A DNA stretch of 64,000 bases from Patescibacteria group bacterium (GTDB lineage Bacteria; Patescibacteriota; Patescibacteriia; UBA11705; JABHMO01): the NCBI GenBank assembly GCA_018818405.1, contig JAHIRY010000047.1:2053-66052 (forward strand), in the 5' to 3' direction. The position numbers and the translations under genes were made by a program. Below the pieces are notes generated by a model, which was not told the origin of the DNA, did no database searches, and saw only the letters and a program-made list of their open reading frames with translations. This document shows positions 5,236-59,783 of this stretch, piece after piece (positions within the stretch are counted from its first letter, which is position 1; each line of letters starts with the position of its first letter).

Positions 5236-7491
5236 ATGAATAATATAAGAAATTTTTGCATTATCGCGCACATTGACCACGGAAAGTCAACTTTGGCTGA
5301 CCGTTTTTTGGAATTCACCGAAACAGTGGAAAAGCGGCACATGAAAGCTCAGCTTCTTGATTCCATGGATTTGGAGCGTGAAAGAGGGATTACAATCAAA
5401 CTACAGCCTGTCCAAATGAACTATATGACTCGGATTTGTGAGAATAAGAATGAGTCAAAATTACTTTATGAGGATCTTACTTATAAAATAAGGGGAGCCG
5501 CTTTTAATGTTAAGAAAAATTTGGGGTTGGGGCATAAAGAAAAAATTTATCAGAAAGCGCTGGAAGCGGAATTCAAAAAACTCGGTTTGCTGTATGAAAG
5601 TGAAAAATCGATTGAAGTTTTTTACGATGACAAAAAAATCGGAGTTTACCGCCCCGATTTTATCATTGAAAACAAAGTAATCGTCGAACTGAAATCATTA
5701 CCCTTTATCGGCGAAAGAGAAAATTCACAATGCCAATCCTACTTAAAAGGTTCTGAATACAAAGTTCTAGTATTAATCAATTTTTCAAAAACAGACGTCG
5801 AATTTAAACGATTCATTTACGATAGAGCGAGAAAGTCCGCGCAGTCCGCGAAGTCCGCATATATACTTAATTTGATAGATACGCCGGGTCATGTCGATTT
5901 CTCTTACGAGGTTTCCCGCTCGCTCGCGGCAGTCGAAGGCGCAATTCTCTTGGTTGACGCGGCGCAGGGCGTTCAGGCTCAGACTTTGGCGAATTTGTAT
6001 TTGGCGATTGAGCAGGGATTGGAAATAATTCCGGTGATAAATAAAATCGATCTGCCGGCAGCTGATGTGGAAAAAGTTTCAACCGAATTGATAAATCTTA
6101 TCGGCTGTAAAAAAGAAGAAATACTTTTGTGTTCAGCGAAAACAGGGCAGGGAATTGAGGCGATTTTGGACGCGGTGGTGGAGAAAGTTCCGCCGCCGAA
6201 AATCGAACCCGGCAAACCTTTGCGCGCTTTGATATTCGATTCTTTTTTCGATGAATACAAAGGAGTGGTCGCTTATGTCAGAATCGTTGACGGAGAGATT
6301 AAAAAAGGCGATAAAATATTGATTGTCGGAACTGACACTGAAGCGGAAGTTTTGGATGTGGGAATTTTAAAGCCGTCATTGGTCTCAACTCCGAAATTGG
6401 AAACCGGTGAAATCGGATTTGTTGTCAGCGGTTTGAAGGAAATTGAAAATTGCCGGGTGGGCGACACCATTACTTCGTACAGAGAACGGGGAAATATCGA
6501 GGTTTTACCCGGTTACAAACAAGCGACGCCAATGGTTTATGCGGGAATTTTTTGCAAAGAAGGCAATGAGTACGGCGATTTGAGAGAAGCGATCGGGAAA
6601 TTGAAATTAAATGACGCGTCCTTGGTTTATGAACCGGAAAGTTCACCTGTTTTGGGTTTTGGTTTTCGTTGCGGATTTTTGGGAATGTTGCATTTGGAAA
6701 TTTTTCAAGAACGATTACGCCGGGAATTTGATTTGGATTTGGTTGTGACTGTTCCGAGCGTTGCCTACAAGGTTGTGTTGAAGCCGGGAAGTTCCATAGA
6801 ACCGCAGATCAGGAAGGAGCAGATTGTGGCTGATGACGCGTACATTATAAAAAATCCCAATGAATTTCCGGACATGAGTCAGATCGATCACATGGAAGAG
6901 CCGATCATGAATGTTGATATTGTCAGTCCAAAGGATTATCTGGGAAATATCATGAGTTTGGTGCAGGAAAATCGCGGTGAATATTTGAACACGGAATTTA
7001 TCGATCCCACGCGCGTGATTTTGCATTACCGCATGCCGCTCGCAATGTTGATCGTTGATTTTTATGACAAATTGAAAACAGTCAGCTCGGGTTATGCGTC
7101 GATGAATTATGATTTTTTCGGTTATGCGCGCGCTGAATTGATAAAAATGGATATTCTGGTTGCCGATGAAATGGTGGAAGCTTTTTCCACGATTATTTAC
7201 AAGGACATGGCATTTCAAATCGGAAAGAAAATAGTGCAAAATTTAAAAGATACAATTCCAAAACAACAGTTCGTGGTAAAATTGCAGGCAGCCATCGGCG
7301 GAAAAATAATCGCGGCGGAAAGAATTTCCGCTTTGCGCAAAGATGTGACAGCGAAATTATACGGCGGAGATTGGACGAGACGGCAGAAATTATTGGAAAA
7401 GCAGAAAAAGGGAAAAAAGAAAATGATGGCGTTCGGAAAAGGCAAAGTGAATATTCCGCCGGAAGCGTTTCTTGCGGTGATTAAACGGTGA
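5236..7491 (+). CDS. lepA: Elongation factor 4 (LepA) carrying a 144-aa in-frame insertion
   Basis: IIAHIDHGKSTL P-loop, DTPGHVDF, and LepA-specific C-terminal domains. At 751 aa it is about 150 aa longer than canonical LepA of roughly 600 aa. Confidence 0.9.
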   Translation: MNNIRNFCIIAHIDHGKSTLADRFLEFTETVEKRHMKAQLLDSMDLERERGITIKLQPVQMNYMTRICENKNESKLLYEDLTYKIRGAAFNVKKNLGLGHKEKIYQKALEAEFKKLGLLYESEKSIEVFYDDKKIGVYRPDFIIENKVIVELKSLPFIGERENSQCQSYLKGSEYKVLVLINFSKTDVEFKRFIYDRARKSAQSAKSAYILNLIDTPGHVDFSYEVSRSLAAVEGAILLVDAAQGVQAQTLANLYLAIEQGLEIIPVINKIDLPAADVEKVSTELINLIGCKKEEILLCSAKTGQGIEAILDAVVEKVPPPKIEPGKPLRALIFDSFFDEYKGVVAYVRIVDGEIKKGDKILIVGTDTEAEVLDVGILKPSLVSTPKLETGEIGFVVSGLKEIENCRVGDTITSYRERGNIEVLPGYKQATPMVYAGIFCKEGNEYGDLREAIGKLKLNDASLVYEPESSPVLGFGFRCGFLGMLHLEIFQERLRREFDLDLVVTVPSVAYKVVLKPGSSIEPQIRKEQIVADDAYIIKNPNEFPDMSQIDHMEEPIMNVDIVSPKDYLGNIMSLVQENRGEYLNTEFIDPTRVILHYRMPLAMLIVDFYDKLKTVSSGYASMNYDFFGYARAELIKMDILVADEMVEAFSTIIYKDMAFQIGKKIVQNLKDTIPKQQFVVKLQAAIGGKIIAAERISALRKDVTAKLYGGDWTRRQKLLEKQKKGKKKMMAFGKGKVNIPPEAFLAVIKR
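5428..5859 (+). other. In-frame GxxExxY / PD-(D/E)xK nuclease-like domain inserted between the G2 and G3 motifs of LepA
   Basis: Contains GHKEKIY, the GxxExxY motif, and RPDFIIENKVIVELK, a D..ExK motif. It replaces the short beta-hairpin loop present in E. coli LepA (KASDGET). The 3' junction holds the direct repeats agtccgcgc/agtccgcga/agtccgca. Confidence 0.7.
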
Positions 7492-24643: not shown

Positions 24644-25009
24644 ATGTCAGAAGTATTAGACCGCATCAAAGAGATGCATAAAGAAATTTTGGAAGCGCAA
24701 AAAAAGAAAAAGGATTTGAGCCAAGTGATCAAGGACGGATTCGCACAATATACGGAATACAAGGATATTACCGAAGAAATGAACAAATTGCGCGAGCGCA
24801 GAAAACAAATCGAATTGCAGGTGCGTCAGGAATATTCATCCGAATACACACAATTGGAAGATATTTCGACTGACATAAAAGACAGCAAAACGGTTCTTTC
24901 CGATTTGATCTGGAATGAATTGATGAAAAACAATACGGTGGAAGTGACAGATGAATGGGAAAATAAATATGTTCCGCAAGTGACGGTGATATTGAAAAAA
25001 GAGAGATAA
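24644..25009 (+). CDS. Hypothetical coiled-coil protein
   Basis: 121-aa charged helical protein with no recognised domain. Confidence 0.45.
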   Translation: MSEVLDRIKEMHKEILEAQKKKKDLSQVIKDGFAQYTEYKDITEEMNKLRERRKQIELQVRQEYSSEYTQLEDISTDIKDSKTVLSDLIWNELMKNNTVEVTDEWENKYVPQVTVILKKER

Positions 25010-25105
25010 GGGTTTTTTGGAAAATTTAAAATGAAAAACGCCCGTTTTCTCGAGAGAAACCAGGGCTTTTTTTTGTCTTAATTTACATATAATTTAGCGG
25101 AATTA

Positions 25106-25134
25106 TTGACAAAATTGTGTTTTTTTGTTATAAT
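25106..25134 (+). promoter_or_regulatory. Consensus sigma-70-type promoter, TTGACA-17-TATAAT, for the downstream ncRNA
   Basis: ttgacaaaattgtgtttttttgttataat. Confidence 0.6.
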
Positions 25135-25138
25135 ATAG

Positions 25139-25580
25139 GTGTTCTTGGAGAACGGCCTGCCGGTGAGACCCAGCAATAAGCCGGACGATGAATCAATCGA
25201 TGAAGTTGGTAGAGGGGTGTCACCCTCGGAAATCCAGCGGAGGTTGGTTCGCGGAACTCTGAACTCGTCAATGCGGCCGGGATGACACCCGGCTGCAATA
25301 CCGCGCTTTTAAGAGCGCGCCCCGGTAGCGTCGGAAAGAATATCATAGGAAGCGAGCAGGAGATTGGGCAACACCCGCATCTTCCCACTCCCTGTTTTCG
25401 CTGAGGCGGAGAGCGATACTGGACGCGGGCCAGTGCTCTTCATTAGCGACCTATGAGAAATCATTCCGACATTGCAATAGTCCTGGGATGGACTTCGGGG
25501 GAGACTAAGGGGCAATCGTTCCCCAAGAACAGCTTCATCAGGGCGTTGATTTCACGATCGCGCCCTGAATTTTTTTTTGT
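25139..25580 (+). ncRNA. Structured ncRNA of about 440 nt, class unassigned, with paired 5' and 3' ends and an intrinsic terminator
   Basis: GC-rich island in an AT-rich genome. The 5' guucuuggagaacg pairs with the 3' cguuccccaagaac. There are many internal hairpins, such as gccgggaugacacccggc and cgcgcuuuuaagagcgcg. The terminator is cagggcg..cgcgccctg plus T9. Only short spurious ORFs are present on either strand. Confidence 0.55.
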
Positions 25581-25770
25581 AAGGACGGTTTTTTTTATTG
25601 TGATCAAAAGTTATTGAATTCAAACCATATTAGTTTCCAATCAAAGTATATTCAGAGTTAGTCATTCCCGGATCCCCGGGTTTCCAGGTTCCCGGGTCGC
25701 CGGGTTTCCGCTTCCCTGGTCCCCTGATTCAGAGCCGGCCTACTTAACAAATCAGTAAAAATGTTTTATA

Positions 25771-26922
25771 TTGAATCCAATATTTATGAATAAAAAACCA
25801 GGAAAAATAAAAGTCGCTGTCGCAGTTTCCGGCGGAGTTGATTCTTCGGTTGCTTTGGCGTTGTTGAAAAAACAAGGTTTTGAGGTTTTCGGCGTGTTCA
25901 TGCATTTCTGGAGCGAGAATATCAGCGGAAAAGTTCGCGACAATATTTGTTGTTCTCTCGAAGCGCAGGAAGACGCGAGAAAAGTTTGCCGAAAGCTGGG
26001 CGTTCCATTTTATACCATGAATATGACATTGCCGTTCAAGAAAAAGGTGGTTGATGATTTTCTCGATCAATATGAAAATTGCCGGACGCCGAATCCTTGC
26101 GTTCTGTGCAACAAGCATATAAAGTTCGGCGAGTTTATCAAAAGAGCAACGGAGATGGGAGCGGATTTTGTGGCGACCGGACATTATGCGCGAAATCCTA
26201 AATCAGAAATTCTAAATTCTAAACAAATTCAAAATCCTAAATCCCAAAATACAAATATTATCAATAAGCTTTTAATTTCAAAGGATATAGCGAAAGACCA
26301 AACTTATTTTTTGCATCAATTGAATAAAAAACAATTATCAAAAATTATTTTTCCGATTGGGAAATATACAAAGGCGGAAGTTCGCGCGCTGGCAAAGAAA
26401 TTCAATCTGCCGACCGCGTCGAAAAAAGAATCGCAGGAAGTTTGTTTTGTTCCGGGCGGAAATTTGCAGAAATTTTTTGAGAAATATTTAAAATTGAAAT
26501 CAGGAGATATTGTCGACATTGAAACGAAAAAAGTTTTGGGAAAACACAATGGTTTGGCGCGATACACCATAGGACAGAGAAAAGGAATCGGACTTCACGG
26601 CGGACCGTGGTATGTCGTCGGATTGGATAAAGAAGAAAATATTTTGCGAGTTTCTAGAAATGAGAGCGATTTTCTCAGCAATGAATTGCAAGTCAAAAAT
26701 GTGAATTGGATTTCCGGCGTTTGTCCGGAATTTCCGTTGAAAGCGAAATGCAAAGTCCGTTATTGTTCAGAAGATGCGAATTCAATAATCGAAACAACGA
26801 ATGAGAAAAATATTTTTCGCGTAAAATTCAAAAAACCGGTTCGCGCCGCAACACCCGGACAGTATTGTGTTTTTTGGAAAGGCAAGGAATGTTTGGGCGG
26901 CGGCGTAATTCAACAAAGTTGA
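25771..26922 (+). CDS. mnmA: tRNA 2-thiouridine(34) synthase MnmA with a low-complexity in-frame insertion
   Basis: The PP-loop AVAVSGGVDSSV, the catalytic Cys residues and the conserved C-terminal domain. The extra segment NPKSEILNSKQIQNPKSQNTN is encoded by aatcctaaat-type repeat DNA. Confidence 0.85.
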   Translation: MNPIFMNKKPGKIKVAVAVSGGVDSSVALALLKKQGFEVFGVFMHFWSENISGKVRDNICCSLEAQEDARKVCRKLGVPFYTMNMTLPFKKKVVDDFLDQYENCRTPNPCVLCNKHIKFGEFIKRATEMGADFVATGHYARNPKSEILNSKQIQNPKSQNTNIINKLLISKDIAKDQTYFLHQLNKKQLSKIIFPIGKYTKAEVRALAKKFNLPTASKKESQEVCFVPGGNLQKFFEKYLKLKSGDIVDIETKKVLGKHNGLARYTIGQRKGIGLHGGPWYVVGLDKEENILRVSRNESDFLSNELQVKNVNWISGVCPEFPLKAKCKVRYCSEDANSIIETTNEKNIFRVKFKKPVRAATPGQYCVFWKGKECLGGGVIQQS

Positions 26923-30991: not shown

Positions 30992-31105
30992 TGATTATGT
31001 TAATATTATAATAGATGAGAATTATTTTGTCAAATTCAATTTATTAAGAGTATTTTTCATTACGAGTAATTTGAGTGAGGATTTATTTTGAAATAATAAA
31101 ATCAT

Positions 31106-31447: not shown

Positions 31448-34009
31448 ATGCCGGAATTCACTCCCATGCAACGGCAATACAATGAAATAAAAGAAAAACA
31501 TCCGCAAGAAATTTTAATGTTTCGCTTGGGCGATTTTTATGAAATGTTCGGCGATGACGCGAAACAAGCTTCGAGCATTTTAAATATTGTTCTGACAGCC
31601 AGGCACAAAGGTTCTGAAAATGAAATGCCGATGTGCGGCGTCCCGCATCATGCGCTTGATAATTATTTGGTGAAATTGCTGAACGCGGGAAAGCGTGTGG
31701 CCATTTGTGAACAATTCGGCGATCCGTCTTTGCCCGGAATTGTGAAGCGGCAAGTGGCGCGCATTGTGACGCCCGGAACAACGCTCAATGATTCAGTCTT
31801 GAACAATAAAAAAAATAATTTTATTATCAGTTTGTTTTTGCAAAAAGATATTTGGGGATTGGCGCTGGCTGATCTGACCACCGGTGAATTCAAAGTGGCG
31901 GAAATTTCTGATTTGAATATATTGAAAAATGAAATTTTTCGTTTTCAAATTTCCGAGGCGATCGCGCCGAGTTCGCTGGGAAATGATGAGCGGCATCGGG
32001 ATTTTATCAATTCTTTGAATAATGTGAATTTTTTTCAATTGCAGCCGTATGAAAATGCTTGTCATGGTTTGACTGAACATTTTAAAATGAAAAATTTGCA
32101 GAGTTTTGGCATTGAAAATTTAAAAGCCGGAATCGAAGCCGCCGGAGCGTTGTTTGGATATTTGAAAGAAACTCAAAAAACGAATTTGGAACATATTACG
32201 AAAATCAGCCGTTACAATTTTGCGGATTTTATGGCATTGGACGAATCAACCATTCGCAATTTGGAACTTTTTCAAAATTCTTCCACCGGCGAATACAACG
32301 GCAGTTTTATTTCTATTATTGATAAAACCGTTACCGGACTCGGAGGAAGAAGATTGCGCCGCTGGCTCATGCTTCCGCTGGTAAATTCCGAGGAAATCAA
32401 TGCGCGGCTTTCCGCTGTCGCCGAAATAATTGAAGATCATTCGTTGATGAAAAATTTGAGCGAAGAATTGTCGCAAACGGCTGATCTCGAACGGCTGATG
32501 GGAAGAATCGGCTGCGGTCGAGCGACTGCGCGGGATTTGGTCGCTTTGAAAAACAGTTTGAATTTAATTCCGAAAATAAAAAATTTATTGAAAGAAAAAA
32601 AATCTCAGCTGTTGCGGGATTCTTTGACAGCGCTGGATGAATCGCCTGAATTGTTGAGATTGTTGGAGCAAGTTTTCGTCGATGAACCGCCGGCAAGCAT
32701 TCTCGAAGGAGGAATGATAAAAGACGGATACAATCCGGCGCTCGATGACTTGCGAACAATCGCGCGCGGCGGAAAAGATTGGCTGGCGAAATTCCAATCG
32801 CAAGAAATCGAACGAACCGGAATTTCTTCGTTGAAAGTTCGTTTTAACAGCGTTTTCGGATATTACATTGAAATCAGCAAAGCGAATTTGTCTCAGGTCC
32901 CGGCTGAATATTCCCGACGGCAAACATTGGTCAATGCCGAACGTTTCATTACTCCGGAATTAAAAGAATATGAAGATAAAATTTTGGGCGCTGAGGAAAA
33001 AATTTTCGCGTTGGAGCGTCAGATATTTTTGGAAACAGTGGAAAAGACTGTGAAACATTTTGAGAAAATTCAAATGTCAGCCGATGCGATTGCCGATCTG
33101 GATGTTTTTTTGAATTTCGCTCGCGTTTCTCTGGAAAATAATTATGTTTGTCCGACGGTGACTGACGGCGGAGAGCTTGCGATAAAAAATGGACGACATC
33201 CGGTAATTGAAAAATTTCAAAAAGAAAGATATGTGTCCAATGATTTGAAAATGGATCATAAAAAAAACGAATTGCTTTTGCTGACCGGTCCGAACATGAG
33301 CGGCAAGTCGAGTTTTCTCCGGCAAACCGCGTTGATTTGTCTCATGGCGCAGATTGGTTGCAATGTGCCGGCTGATGAAGCTGTTCTTTGCGCGGTTGAC
33401 CGTATTTTCACCAGAGTTGGCGCGTCTGACAATTTGACGCAGGGAGCTTCGACATTTATGGTGGAAATGCAGGAAGCGGCGAATATTCTGAATAATGCGA
33501 CTGAAAAATCATTGATAATTTTGGATGAACTCGGACGAGGCACTTCCACTTATGACGGCGTCAGCATTGCTTGGGCGATAATTGAATATTTGCACAATCA
33601 TTTGAGAGCGAAAACATTGTTCGCCACGCATTACCATGAACTGACGGAAATAATTGATAATTTGGAGCGCGCGGAAAATTATTGCGTGGCGGTGAGCGAG
33701 TCTCGGGGAAATGTGGTTTTTTTGCACAAAATTGTAAAAGGCGCAACTTCCCGGAGTTATGGCATTGAAGTGGCGAAATTGGCCGGATTGCCGCCGGAGA
33801 TTGTTCTCAGGGCAAATAATATTTTGGAAGATTTGGAAAATTCAAAGGAAATAAAGCTGGATAAAAAGGCGGAACAAGGAGCTTTGTTTTTGCCGGTTGA
33901 TAACAAGAAGGAAAAGGAATTGGCTGAGGAATTGAAAAAACTGGATATAAATTCATTGACTCCGCTTGAAGCGTTTCAGCGGATAGTTGATTGGAAAGAT
34001 AGATATTGA
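31448..34009 (+). CDS. mutS: DNA mismatch repair protein MutS
   Basis: Mismatch-binding N-terminus, Walker A GPNMSGKSS, HTH and dimerisation C-terminus, 853 aa. Confidence 0.9.
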   Translation: MPEFTPMQRQYNEIKEKHPQEILMFRLGDFYEMFGDDAKQASSILNIVLTARHKGSENEMPMCGVPHHALDNYLVKLLNAGKRVAICEQFGDPSLPGIVKRQVARIVTPGTTLNDSVLNNKKNNFIISLFLQKDIWGLALADLTTGEFKVAEISDLNILKNEIFRFQISEAIAPSSLGNDERHRDFINSLNNVNFFQLQPYENACHGLTEHFKMKNLQSFGIENLKAGIEAAGALFGYLKETQKTNLEHITKISRYNFADFMALDESTIRNLELFQNSSTGEYNGSFISIIDKTVTGLGGRRLRRWLMLPLVNSEEINARLSAVAEIIEDHSLMKNLSEELSQTADLERLMGRIGCGRATARDLVALKNSLNLIPKIKNLLKEKKSQLLRDSLTALDESPELLRLLEQVFVDEPPASILEGGMIKDGYNPALDDLRTIARGGKDWLAKFQSQEIERTGISSLKVRFNSVFGYYIEISKANLSQVPAEYSRRQTLVNAERFITPELKEYEDKILGAEEKIFALERQIFLETVEKTVKHFEKIQMSADAIADLDVFLNFARVSLENNYVCPTVTDGGELAIKNGRHPVIEKFQKERYVSNDLKMDHKKNELLLLTGPNMSGKSSFLRQTALICLMAQIGCNVPADEAVLCAVDRIFTRVGASDNLTQGASTFMVEMQEAANILNNATEKSLIILDELGRGTSTYDGVSIAWAIIEYLHNHLRAKTLFATHYHELTEIIDNLERAENYCVAVSESRGNVVFLHKIVKGATSRSYGIEVAKLAGLPPEIVLRANNILEDLENSKEIKLDKKAEQGALFLPVDNKKEKELAEELKKLDINSLTPLEAFQRIVDWKDRY

Positions 34010-34050: not shown

Positions 34051-34079
34051 TTGACAATAATTAATTTATGTGCTATAAT
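34051..34079 (+). promoter_or_regulatory. Consensus promoter TTGACA-17-TATAAT for the downstream ncRNA
   Basis: ttgacaataattaatttatgtgctataat. Confidence 0.6.
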
Positions 34080-34085
34080 TGTTTT

Positions 34086-34520
34086 ACAAGTTCGTTGATA
34101 ATAAAAAAAAGTGGTTTGGCTCCACCGTAAGGCTTCTCTCCCAGTCCCTGTATTCTTACATGGGCGCTGGATAAGAGATGGCCATGATAACGTGATTCTG
34201 AAGGTCGCATACCTGTCACCTGGCTTTTGCGGGTGACGGGTTGAGAGCGGCAATTGAGGAACGCGGAAAGTCGAGGTCTGGTCAACCTCGGCGATGGTTG
34301 CAAATCGCACCATTCAAAAGTCACCATACTGGCACGCGGAGTTTAGCTTCGCCAGGTATGGCGTTCGGCTGGTGGGATTTAAAATCTTATCAGCTGGCGA
34401 GTAAGTTGCCATCGAGCAACAATCGACAAGCGGGGCTTCGCATGTAGCATGTCTGTGAGATGTGCGAAACGAAGACTCCGGCCGGCGCGAATCCACATGG
34501 ATGCGCCGGTTCTTTTTTTG
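34086..34520 (+). ncRNA. Second structured ncRNA candidate, about 430 nt, class unassigned, between mutS and mutL
   Basis: GC-rich island covered only by overlapping short ORFs on both strands. Extended hairpins include accugucacc..ggugacgggu and ccauacugg..[gcggag..cuucgc]..ccagguaugg. The terminator is ccggcgcgaatccacatggatgcgccgg plus T-run. It contains a catgtagcatgt motif shared with the intergenic repeat family. Confidence 0.5.
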
Positions 34521-36423: not shown

Positions 36424-36452
36424 TTGACAAAAATTCAAGAATTTACTATACT
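36424..36452 (+). promoter_or_regulatory. Promoter TTGACA-17-TATACT upstream of the infA/ribosomal-protein block
   Basis: ttgacaaaaattcaagaatttactatact. A second candidate, ttgacataattataaaaagatatataat, lies near 36562. Confidence 0.45.
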
Positions 36453-43349: not shown

Positions 43350-43378
43350 TTGACAGTTTTGAAAAGTTTGGCTATAAT
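43350..43378 (+). promoter_or_regulatory. Consensus promoter TTGACA-17-TATAAT for the rplJ-rplL operon
   Basis: ttgacagttttgaaaagtttggctataat. Confidence 0.55.
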
Positions 43379-49198: not shown

Positions 49199-50184
49199 TT
49201 TTTCAGGGAGCAATTAGCAAGGAGCAGGGAGCACTACTCATGTATCATATAACATGTAGCATGTAACAAAAATCGATATTGAAATCCTGAATTTCGTAGA
49301 GGCGCAAAATCTTGCGTCTGCGATTCAATTAAAATGAAATTCTAACAAAAAACCGTCCGGAGAATTATCCGGACGGGGAGCGAGCGATGCGGTTTAGCCA
49401 AGGCTGACCGCATTTTTTGCGATATTGCGGGCAACTGAATCGAGTACGAGACTAACGACTAAATGTTTGCAAGTTTCAGCGAGTTGACGCAAAAAAGCGG
49501 CTCTTTCATGATTGCGCGAATCTCTCAGTACTTCGAGCGCGTCAATCAAATTGGCGCATTGCCTCGGATAATCGACAGAACTTTGAGAAATTTCATTGAG
49601 ACGCAAAATCGTTTCTTCCACCAGATTTTGCGCTTCCTGATATTTGTCGGCCATAATGTCCCTCCGTTGTTCGTCCCTTCTAATAATAAATTTAACATCA
49701 GCCGGCATATTTTGTCAATTTATAATTTGCTTGTGATTTAGTATTTCGAATTTATAATTTGTAATTTATGATTTCGAGCTTGTTTAGAATTTCGAATTTA
49801 GGATTTAGTATTTGGAATTTGTCCCGCAGCGTGCGGGATCCCGCTCACAGCGGCGATTTAGTATTTCGGATTTAGGATTTCACCAGTGTTCCCTGATTAG
49901 TGCTCCTTGTTCCTTGCCGTAGGTTGCTGCCACCGCAGCGTGCGGGGTTCCGCTCACAGCGGGACGAATTCGCCACCGCAGCGTGCGGGGTCCCGTCTCA
50001 CAGCGGGACGAATCATCACTAATTCTCCACCGCAGCGTGCGGGATCCCGCCCGCGGCGGGACGAATTATAATTTCGCAATTTAAGATTCATATTTTGTTA
50101 CATGCGAAGTGCTCCCTGCTCCCTGCTGATTGCTCCCTGCCAAGTGCTCCTTGCTCCCTGTTCAAAAAATCTGGGGATAAACGT
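49199..50184. repeat. Mosaic intergenic repeat region R1 upstream of the mraZ promoter
   Basis: The modules, in both orientations, are a GC hairpin unit (ccaccgcagcgtgcgggg.cccgctcacagcggg, tandem x4 at 49930..50068 plus one at 49822), agggagcac/gtgctccctg units (49203-49240, 49884-49915, 50108-50160), a catgtagcatgtaaca unit (49240-49270) and AT-rich (a)aatcctaaat/tttaggatt units (49737-49880). Confidence 0.75.
49394..49654 (-). CDS. Hypothetical 86-aa helical protein embedded in repeat region R1
   Basis: SD GGAGG lies 6 nt upstream of the ATG at 49652-49654. A dedicated minus-strand terminator (ccgtccggagaattatccggacgg plus U-run) follows the stop. The track ORF extends to 49708 without an SD. 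Confidence 0.5.
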   Translation of the reverse strand: MADKYQEAQNLVEETILRLNEISQSSVDYPRQCANLIDALEVLRDSRNHERAAFLRQLAETCKHLVVSLVLDSVARNIAKNAVSLG

Positions 50185-58847: not shown

Positions 58848-59069
58848 TTGCCACCACCGCAGCGTGCGGGGCAGGCGAATTATCTTTTGTGATTTGTGAT
58901 TTCGAGCTTGTCCCGCAGCGTGCGGGATCCCGCTCACAGCGGTGATTTAGGCTTTAGTATTTAGAATTTAGGATTTTAATTGTGCTACATGTTATATGTT
59001 ATATGAGCAGTGTTCCATGATTAGTGTTCCCTGATTAGTGCTCCCTGACAAGTGCTCCCTGAAAATCAC
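58848..59069. repeat. Mosaic intergenic repeat region R3 between murF and tRNA-Glu
   Basis: Two GC hairpin units (58852-58875 and 58907-58940), the AT-rich tttaggattt units, gtgctacatgttatatg and gtgctccctg x3 units. Confidence 0.7.
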
Positions 59070-59144: not shown

Positions 59145-59272
59145 AAAAATCATCATCGCGAGATGGTGATTTTTTGTTATTTAGGAAATTAATTTGAGTT
59201 ATCCACATTTAAATTTGCCGTTCGGTTTTTGTTTGGTATAATGAAGTTAGAACCGAACAGAAAGCGAACGTT

Positions 59273-59311
59273 AGTGAGTAAGAGATTGAGAGAATAAGAG
59301 ATTTAGAGATA
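59273..59311. repeat. Left arm of the inverted repeat flanking the four-helix-bundle gene, a degenerate (aagagatt)n array
   Basis: gagtaagagattgagagaataagagatttagagataaag. Its complement, (aatctctt)n, occurs at 59783..59825. Coordinates are approximate. Confidence 0.6.
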
Positions 59312-59429
59312 AAGTCAGAAATTCAATTTCGTAGATTCTAAGTCTCTCAGTTTCTGTCATTTTATCTAACTATTCTAAAGAATGAAGCATTCATATAAAT
59401 AATTAAGAATTTGGCAAAAAGGATATGAG

Positions 59430-59783
59430 TTGTTGATGAAAATTTATGAGGCAACTCGAAATTTTCCACAGGAAGAACGATTTGGATTGATATCAGATAT
59501 TAGACGATCGGCGAATTCCATTATCGCAAATATTGCAGAAAGTCATGGACGTTATTACTATCTCGATAAAATTCGTGTTTTATACATTGCTCGAGGTGAA
59601 ATAGAAGAAGTTAGTAGCCACCTCGCGGTTGCAACCGGTTTGCAGTATCTATCCATAGCGGAATCAACGGATTTTTTACAAGAATATGAAGGTTTACAAC
59701 TCGGATTAAATGATTTCATTGCGAGTTTATTACATCAATCAACTGCAATAAAAAAAAGTTCTAAAAAAAATAATTCCCAATAA
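59430..59783 (+). CDS. Four-helix-bundle protein (23S rRNA intervening-sequence / S23 / bAvd family)
   Basis: Family signature ...ATRNFPQEERFGLISDIRRSANSIIANIAESHGR...YIARGEIEEV. 117 aa, coordinates taken from the ORF track. Confidence 0.75.
   Translation: MLMKIYEATRNFPQEERFGLISDIRRSANSIIANIAESHGRYYYLDKIRVLYIARGEIEEVSSHLAVATGLQYLSIAESTDFLQEYEGLQLGLNDFIASLLHQSTAIKKSSKKNNSQ

Follow-up and report, generated by a model that had tools for sequence, protein, structure and literature searches.

The 64-kb stretch of DNA analysed here (contig JAHIRY010000047.1; hereafter the window) is part of the core chromosome of a Patescibacteria (Parcubacteria-like) bacterium, and on its plus strand, at positions 25106–25580, it carries a locus that we refer to as RNA1. 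We found that RNA1 is a real, unclassified, non-coding and strongly structured transcription unit with its own promoter and terminator, and the interval reads as a complete unit in which promoter, structured body and terminator follow one another. Given that the promoter, the terminator, a closing helix that begins at the start site, a defined fold, the lack of coding signal and a reproducible assembly all agree, a genuine non-coding RNA (ncRNA) is the best supported explanation for this locus. Going further, and with modest confidence, we propose that RNA1 is a stand-alone, highly expressed and stable structured ncRNA that acts in trans as a folded particle.

Transcription signals and coding potential of RNA1

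The initial annotation of this DNA, made from the sequence alone, had claimed a perfect TTGACA-17-TATAAT promoter for the locus, and this was borne out. A sigma-70-type promoter lies at 25106–25134 (+), with the −35 hexamer TTGACA at 25106–25111 and the −10 hexamer TATAAT at 25129–25134 (consensus match 12/12), and the 17-nt spacer ends in TG-T, which adds an extended −10 element. The start site is predicted at ~25138–25141. Sites of the TTGACA-17-TATAAT form with at most one mismatch occur seven times in the window, four of them perfect, where shuffled sequences lead one to expect 0.40. One perfect site is found at 43350, ~160 nt upstream of the L10-L7/L12 (rplJ/rplL) ribosomal protein genes, and the S13-S11-S4-RpoA-L17 cluster is preceded by a site with one mismatch, at 36424. 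This form of promoter thus also stands before ribosomal protein operons, for which high expression is expected. A further perfect site, at 31005–31033 on the minus strand, is aimed into the 3′ end of the plus-strand NYN-domain gene, and downstream of it no gene on that strand is apparent.

At the other end of the locus, the strong intrinsic terminator that had been proposed is indeed present at 25538–25579 (+), as a hairpin (25538–25568; −18.7 kcal/mol, z = −3.95) followed by a run of nine U (25571–25579); a simple terminator scan missed it. The primary transcript would measure ~440 nt and its folded body ~395 nt. The description of the locus as a GC-rich island proved accurate as well, since the body (25140–25535) has a G+C content of 55.8% compared to 40.6% for the window, and the 300-nt stretch with the highest G+C of the whole window (0.58) starts at 25151. 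Two independent assemblies, built from other sequencing runs (SRR6514274 and SRR2544004) and reached via an exact match to the 121-aa protein encoded upstream, carry the RNA1 region with 100% identity. This indicates that the sequence is real and no assembly artefact. These two assemblies hold the only other copies of RNA1 that we found, no search brought up a diverged homolog, and because both are identical to RNA1 they offer no variation for covariation analysis.

The locus had been said to contain only short spurious open reading frames (ORFs), and examination of its coding potential led to the same view. All ORFs overlapping RNA1 are ≤86 aa. We used a codon log-odds score trained on 24 long genes of the window, for which real genes reach +0.43 ± 0.13 in frame and −0.13 ± 0.21 off frame. 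All six frames of the RNA1 locus scored between −0.15 and −0.35, that is, at the off-frame level, and its individual ORFs between −0.25 and +0.11. The plus-strand ORFs (48, 40, 30 and 54 aa) are not hydrophobic, lack a Shine-Dalgarno sequence and show non-coding codon usage. A concatenated six-frame translation of RNA1 had zero matches at E ≤ 10 among 5.8 billion proteins. With the longest open stretch of the minus strand, an 80-aa ORF, we searched 1.84 billion representatives exhaustively by HMMER and obtained only four matches, all weak (best E = 3e-7), which we read as compositional rather than as homology, since each consists of several short stretches in a long protein.

The locus was likewise unmatched among known RNA families. 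A search of the whole window against Rfam 15 at gathering thresholds detected only tRNA-Glu, and a search of positions 25000–25700 (701 nt) at E ≤ 10 with lax filters gave only four chance hits (a small nucleolar RNA, a microRNA and two small RNAs; 9–20 bits).

The predicted fold

The plus strand of RNA1 has a minimum free energy (MFE) of −173.8 kcal/mol. None of 100 shuffles folded as well (z = −6.15), and an independent run gave z = −6.57. Its ensemble is unusually well defined, with a diversity of 33, whereas dinucleotide shuffles reach 102 ± 26 and none of 60 came as low (minimum 56), and nearly all predicted helices have a pair probability >0.95. The 5′ and 3′ ends pair with each other, as the initial annotation had noted. 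In this closing helix, the 5′ strand (25137–25155, +) begins at the predicted first transcribed bases and pairs with 25516–25534 at a probability of 0.97–0.98. The core consists of 15 bp (25140–25148/25523–25531 and 25150–25155/25516–25521), can be extended to ~18 bp (out to 25137/25534), and stops 3–6 nt before the terminator hairpin.

Inside the closing helix, five arms (A–E, all on the plus strand) radiate from one central junction in the predicted fold. Arm A (25158–25224) starts with a 4-bp stem (25158–25161/25511–25514) that closes the central junction and continues as an irregular hairpin with helices 25162–25166/25220–25224, 25168–25171/25215–25218 and 25186–25189/25196–25199 (main-helix probabilities 0.9–1.0); an alternative local hairpin, GAGGGG-UGUCA-CCCUC, is possible at 25211–25226. 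Arm B (25226–25262) is formed by stacked helices of 5, 3 and 5 bp with the loop GGUUGG, and contains GGAAAUCC. Hairpin C (25272–25297) has a perfect 10-bp stem and the loop AUGACA (probability 0.98), and its loop bases UGACA are complementary to UGUCA at 25217–25221 (10 of 11 positions complementary). Hairpin D (25302–25319) has a perfect 7-bp stem and the loop UUAA (probability 0.96). Arm E (25320–25500) is long, irregular and branched and ends in a three-way junction, with sub-hairpins at 25354–25397, which is uncertain (probability ~0.5), and 25398–25449, and a side hairpin at 25479–25494. The 3′ junction (25501–25534) comprises a 10-nt single strand, GAGACUAAGG (25501–25510), followed by the bases that complete the 4-bp stem and the closing helix on the 3′ side.

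The fold favours the plus strand, which reaches an MFE of −173.8 kcal/mol compared to −162.1 kcal/mol for the minus strand, and the plus-strand helices threaded on the minus strand yield −158.5 kcal/mol. The plus-strand fold contains 13 G-U pairs.

A lineage-specific insertion and a second locus

RNA1 lies among conserved genes. The gene order leading up to it is T2SSE, T2SSF, two pilins, D-Ala-D-Ala carboxypeptidase and a 121-aa coiled-coil protein; RNA1 is then followed by MnmA, an ABC-F ATPase, alanyl-tRNA synthetase (AlaRS), an NYN protein, MutS, MutL and ribosomal protein operons. The closest MnmA among 5.8 billion protein clusters is only 65% identical, which marks the lineage as isolated. 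For comparison, we collected 16 syntenic loci of relatives (135 kb), anchored on MnmA (60–65% identity) and the 121-aa protein (61–68% identity). Searches of these loci with nhmmer and blastn found no trace of RNA1; the gene backbone is conserved and there is often no room for such a locus. Two short blastn matches in one relative (L001) lie inside a real protein gene and were rejected. In relatives L032–L034 the 121-aa gene and mnmA abut with a 0-nt gap, and other relatives carry at the same spot a 236-aa protein, TrmB together with a radical SAM enzyme, a HicB-like protein, or membrane proteins. With the element missing from relatives and its flanking genes abutting in the most compact of them, RNA1 sits on a ~760-bp lineage-specific insertion at a variable spot. 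The inserted interval (25010–25786) extends from the stop of the 121-aa gene to the mnmA ATG and comprises RNA1 and a 200-bp spacer.

Within this spacer, 3′ of the RNA1 terminator, there are five overlapping TTCCCGGGTxxCC units at 8-nt spacing (25665–25732), and a 12-bp direct repeat, TATTGAAT(T/C)CAA, at 25612 and 25769 brackets them. The segment 25612–25780 may be a separate small insertion.

Wider homolog searches gave a similar picture. RNA1 was unmatched by blastn in phages and plasmids, and four motif scans of viral contigs returned chance hits or none. We also used frame translations of RNA1 as queries, each scan consisting of six 24-nt windows that tolerate third-position changes; together the scans covered 12 windows and most of RNA1. 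In three such scans, one of viral contigs and two of JGI metagenomes, 4, 153 and 266 stretches matched and none was confirmed by tblastn, a step that could reject homologs below ~85% identity. The safe conclusion is that these collections hold no close homolog of RNA1, while distant ones may exist.

RNA1 is not the only locus of its kind in the window. A second one, RNA2 (34051–34520, +), lies between mutS and mutL and has a perfect promoter at 34051–34079, a body at ~34086–34480 and a terminator made up of a hairpin at ~34481–34508 and a T-run to ~34519. The gene spans ~430 nt and its body ~395 nt (51% G+C). Its MFE is −162 kcal/mol, with z-scores of −6.6 and −7.95 compared to −3.3 on the other strand, its ensemble diversity is 26 compared to 99 in shuffles, and 22 of the pairs in the fold are G-U. 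The codon usage of RNA2 is non-coding, Rfam offered no match at E ≤ 10, and a frame-translation scan of viral contigs found nothing. In relative L013 the gap between mutS and mutL is ~60 nt, which indicates that RNA2 is also an insertion. We considered whether RNA1 and RNA2 are paralogs and rejected this, as they have zero sequence similarity. The genome thus carries at least two unrelated RNA genes of this design within 10 kb, and RNA2 shows that they represent a recurring gene type in this genome.

Possible modes of action and alternative explanations

If RNA1 is a trans-acting ncRNA, its features suggest how it might work. It would be transcribed at a high level from its consensus extended −10 promoter, as a perfect promoter of the same form precedes the L10-L7/L12 genes. 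It would also be metabolically stable, since a closing helix of 15 to ~18 bp seals both ends beside the terminator hairpin. As a folded particle, it would most likely serve as a protein-binding scaffold or decoy, or as a self-associating structural RNA, because its ends are sealed, little single strand is left for antisense pairing, the loops UGUCA and UGACA are complementary, and no partner gene adjoins it.

Kissing contacts are a feature of the homo-oligomers of ROOL, GOLLD and OLE, and the UGUCA/UGACA loops of RNA1 could mediate contacts of this kind. RNA1 resembles these RNAs, together with raiA and HEARO, in being a long multi-helix ncRNA with its own transcription signals, and their functions are likewise unknown or recently studied. 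It differs in that numerous covarying homologs underlie the definition of those classes, whereas RNA1 has no known homologs, no associated protein genes, and no prophage or tRNA context; it also matched none of OLE, ROOL, GOLLD, raiA, HEARO or the other large ncRNA classes of Rfam 15. The formation of homo-oligomers has been reported for ROOL, GOLLD and OLE (PMC12286853). A very narrow distribution such as that of RNA1 has a parallel in the smtA 'Soda Lake' motif, reported only in Thioalkalivibrio (PMC11109978). RNA1 is also similar to the CsrB/RsmZ sponge RNAs in size (~350–450 nt), strong promoter and terminator, many hairpins and proposed trans action. In contrast to these, its 14 GGA motifs lie mostly in stems and no motif is repeated significantly after multiple-testing correction; no csrA gene was seen in the window. 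The idea of another sponge motif was rejected, since GCAAUA occurs three times in RNA1 but half of the shuffles hold some 6-mer at least three times.

Guide RNAs that are encoded beside their partners (retron, IscB/TnpB, IS110 bridge RNA, TIGR and tracrRNA) were rejected because there is no adjacent partner gene. Among the long ORFs of the window, Pfam detected no genes for reverse transcriptase, Nop/Tas, IscB/TnpB, IS110 recombinase, Cas, RnpA or SmpB; an RVT_3 hit at 12532–12930 is read as RNase H, since an RNase_H hit co-occurs. A TIGR or stem-loop guide array (PMC12045711) was set aside for want of a Nop/Tas gene and of a repeat array in RNA1.

Several points weigh against a functional particle. 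The minus strand of RNA1 is also strongly structured (z = −4.6 to −5.5), and palindromic or repeat-filled intergenic regions, in which this genome and its relatives are rich, reach equally extreme z-scores, so that the thermodynamics are supportive but no proof of function at the RNA level. Searches of all the collections brought up no RNA1 homolog. Pfam analysis of the long ORFs of the window revealed no partner protein gene adjoining RNA1, and no repeated motif in RNA1 was significant under multiple testing. The particle mode of action is proposed from the architecture of the RNA.

The main rival is that RNA1 is a transcribed relic or selfish element, a decayed remnant of a hairpin-rich mobile element (a composite of miniature inverted-repeat transposable elements, or MITEs, and repetitive extragenic palindromes, or REPs, or else an intron or insertion sequence fragment) with no cellular function. 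The structure would then reflect DNA palindromes, and the promoter and terminator would be incidental or inherited. Such an origin would fit the lineage-specific insertion upstream of mnmA, where each relative carries different cargo, the structured minus strand, the several palindromic or repeat intergenic regions of the window with z-scores of −6 to −8 on both strands, the ~125-nt MITE-like elements found nearby in relatives, and short words in RNA1 that are similar to group I intron elements. We nevertheless regard it as unlikely. RNA1 is unique in the window, in the 135 kb of relatives, in phages and plasmids, and across JGI metagenomes as scanned with 12 of its 24-nt windows; no terminal inverted repeats or target duplications were found to bracket it, and Rfam reported no intron or mobile-RNA hit at E ≤ 10. 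Moreover, its promoter, closing helix and terminator are positioned exactly with respect to one another, which would not be expected from decay.

Introns were also considered in their own right. Group I and group II introns (RF00028/RF00029 and related models) had no hit to RNA1 at E ≤ 10. The segments GAGACUAAGG and AAUAGUCC resemble the group I R and S elements, but their order is wrong (S before R) and no model hit accompanies them. The hairpin at 25408–25441 has the length of domain V, but its bulge is on the wrong strand.

A less probable alternative is that RNA1 acts as a trans antisense RNA whose 3′ end pairs with mutS mRNA, and possibly with others, while the fold serves as a stabilising scaffold. 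Every base of 25523–25539 (17 nt) is complementary to the mutS codons at 33372–33388 (blastn E = 0.001–0.007 within the window), this stretch runs across the short unpaired linker that joins the closing helix to the terminator, and a 15-nt complement to lepA is found at 6133–6147 (E = 0.02). Yet the closing helix takes up about 9 of the 17 bases and the terminator stem another 2, the mutS target lies deep in the coding region, away from the ribosome-binding site, and the match is a single one, with nothing comparable for RNA2. The mutS and lepA complements may be chance matches, and we consider antisense action improbable.

Still harder to sustain is the view that RNA1 is a diverged RNase P RNA, or a transfer-messenger RNA (tmRNA), signal recognition particle (SRP) RNA or 6S RNA missed by the Rfam models, to which we assign very little likelihood. 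A resemblance to RNase P RNA (RF00010/RF00011) does exist, in a length of ~350–400 nt (~395 nt in RNA1), a GC-rich island, a stand-alone strong promoter and terminator, and a P1-like helix joining the 5′ and 3′ ends; such a helix is present in RNA1 but is not exclusive to this RNA family. RNase P RNA, unlike RNA1, has conserved regions I and V (CR-I and CR-V) and the P4 pseudoknot, and RNA1 is in addition absent from the syntenic loci of relatives. RNA1 matched none of the RNase P covariance models (bacterial A and B, archaeal and minimal) by gathering score or at E ≤ 10. Motif scans of RNA1 found no CR-I within 1 mismatch and no CR-V (ACAGAANNCGGCUUA) within 3 mismatches; the nearest likeness to CR-I is GGAAAUCC in arm B, one base short of GGAAAGUCC. 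Inspection by eye found no P4 pseudoknot partner near the 3′ end; there the last internal stem and the closing helix are just 1 nt apart, which leaves no place for the P4 3′ strand. Some RNase P RNAs of the Candidate Phyla Radiation (CPR) do escape standard searches, as in 10 of 35 circular CPR genomes rnpB was detected only once the Infernal thresholds had been lowered, but according to the same study (Lui et al. 2021, PMC8172020) these sub-threshold RNAs retain many of the features conserved in RNase P, whereas RNA1 keeps none of the conserved RNase P motifs scanned.

The same holds for the other universal RNAs. A tmRNA (RF00023) would be like RNA1 in length, high expected expression and paired termini, but has a tRNA-like domain, a T-loop, a CCA end and a tag reading frame, all of which RNA1 lacks; in RNA1, ARAGORN and Rfam were both negative for tmRNA and no T-loop was found within 2 mismatches. 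Rfam gave no match of RNA1 to SRP RNA or 6S RNA, and the SRP domain IV motif was not found. The initial annotation had reported the absence of RNase P, tmRNA and SRP signatures, and Rfam, ARAGORN and the motif scans concur. Its further suggestion of a divergent housekeeping RNA is not upheld, given that RNA1 lies on an insertion without counterpart in 16 of 16 syntenic loci and lacks RNase P and tmRNA motifs, whereas its other option, a novel large ncRNA, may hold. Although Rfam detected neither rnpB nor ssrA elsewhere in the window, the window represents an estimated ~6% of a ~1-Mb genome, and the true rnpB and ssrA are most likely located elsewhere.

Least credible of all is that RNA1 is a cis-acting leader of mnmA (a riboswitch, T-box or attenuator), which its position upstream of mnmA on the same strand would allow but which is contradicted by a terminator that ends 207 nt before the mnmA ATG, a promoter-like site of mnmA at 25744–25772, the lack of any riboswitch or T-box match in Rfam, and relatives in which mnmA, with no such leader, comes straight after the 121-aa gene or after other genes, or that it is the mRNA of a small protein or hok-like type I toxin, which it resembles in being a highly folded lineage-specific intergenic insertion of ~400 nt (a 5′–3′ fold-back of a transcript of that size being typical of hok-family mRNAs) but from which it differs in having no small hydrophobic ORF, Shine-Dalgarno sequence, antisense promoter or coding codon usage.

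RNA1 therefore appears not to work as an mRNA, a cis-regulatory leader or a universal housekeeping RNA, and we file it as an orphan among the stand-alone large structured bacterial ncRNAs. Patescibacteria have genomes of ~1 Mb from which many functions are missing, and to our knowledge their ncRNAs beyond rRNA, tRNA and RNase P are essentially unexplored. In RNA1 and RNA2, two unrelated folded RNAs of ~400 nt lie between conserved housekeeping genes, and relatives are without them. It is possible, though we put it forward only tentatively, that the two represent classes of large structured RNA that are so far undescribed and highly expressed and that a single Patescibacteria lineage has acquired, and they could add functions to a reduced genome as ribozymes or as self-assembling or protein-organising particles. 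If they are functional, a reduced genome spends transcription on lineage-specific RNA machines, and the few large ncRNAs listed for bacteria would gain new members. If they are relics, strong thermodynamic and promoter signals can mislead ncRNA prediction from single genomes in repeat-rich CPR genomes.

Apart from these loci, the window and the related loci contain several repeats and structured regions. An intergenic repeat family occurs at 49205–49240, 49750–50170 and 58850–59065, with copies upstream of mraZ and tRNA-Glu. It combines short hairpins in pairs (CCGCAGCGTGCGGG and CCGCTCACAGCGG) with AT-rich atttaggatttagtatttgg units and with AGTGCTCCCTG-like units arranged in runs. Inverted AGTGCTCCCTG copies flank 49200–50170, inside which there is a 104-aa minus-strand ORF with no Pfam hit, and this segment may be a MITE/REP-like element. 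The intergenic region 15456–15890, upstream of pilM, contains long nested inverted repeats (z ~ −6.7 on both strands) and has the appearance of a palindrome at the level of DNA, not of an RNA specific to one strand. Directly after tRNA-Glu, the plus strand of 59145–59783 is strongly structured (z = −7.1), and the gene that follows it encodes a 23S rRNA intervening-sequence protein (PF05635, with a weak bAvd-like match). In the MnmA-AlaRS-MutS neighbourhood of two relatives (L024:13826–14290 and L023:11225–11345), we observed MITE-like elements of ~125 nt with the termini TTGTCAT(G/T)C...GTCGGAATGACAA, three of them as tandem copies in L024, with fold z-scores of −8 to −10. Finally, the LepA (EF4) homolog encoded at 5236–7491 (+) carries a PD-(D/E)XK nuclease domain (PDDEXK_3, residues 80–193) inserted in its GTPase domain.

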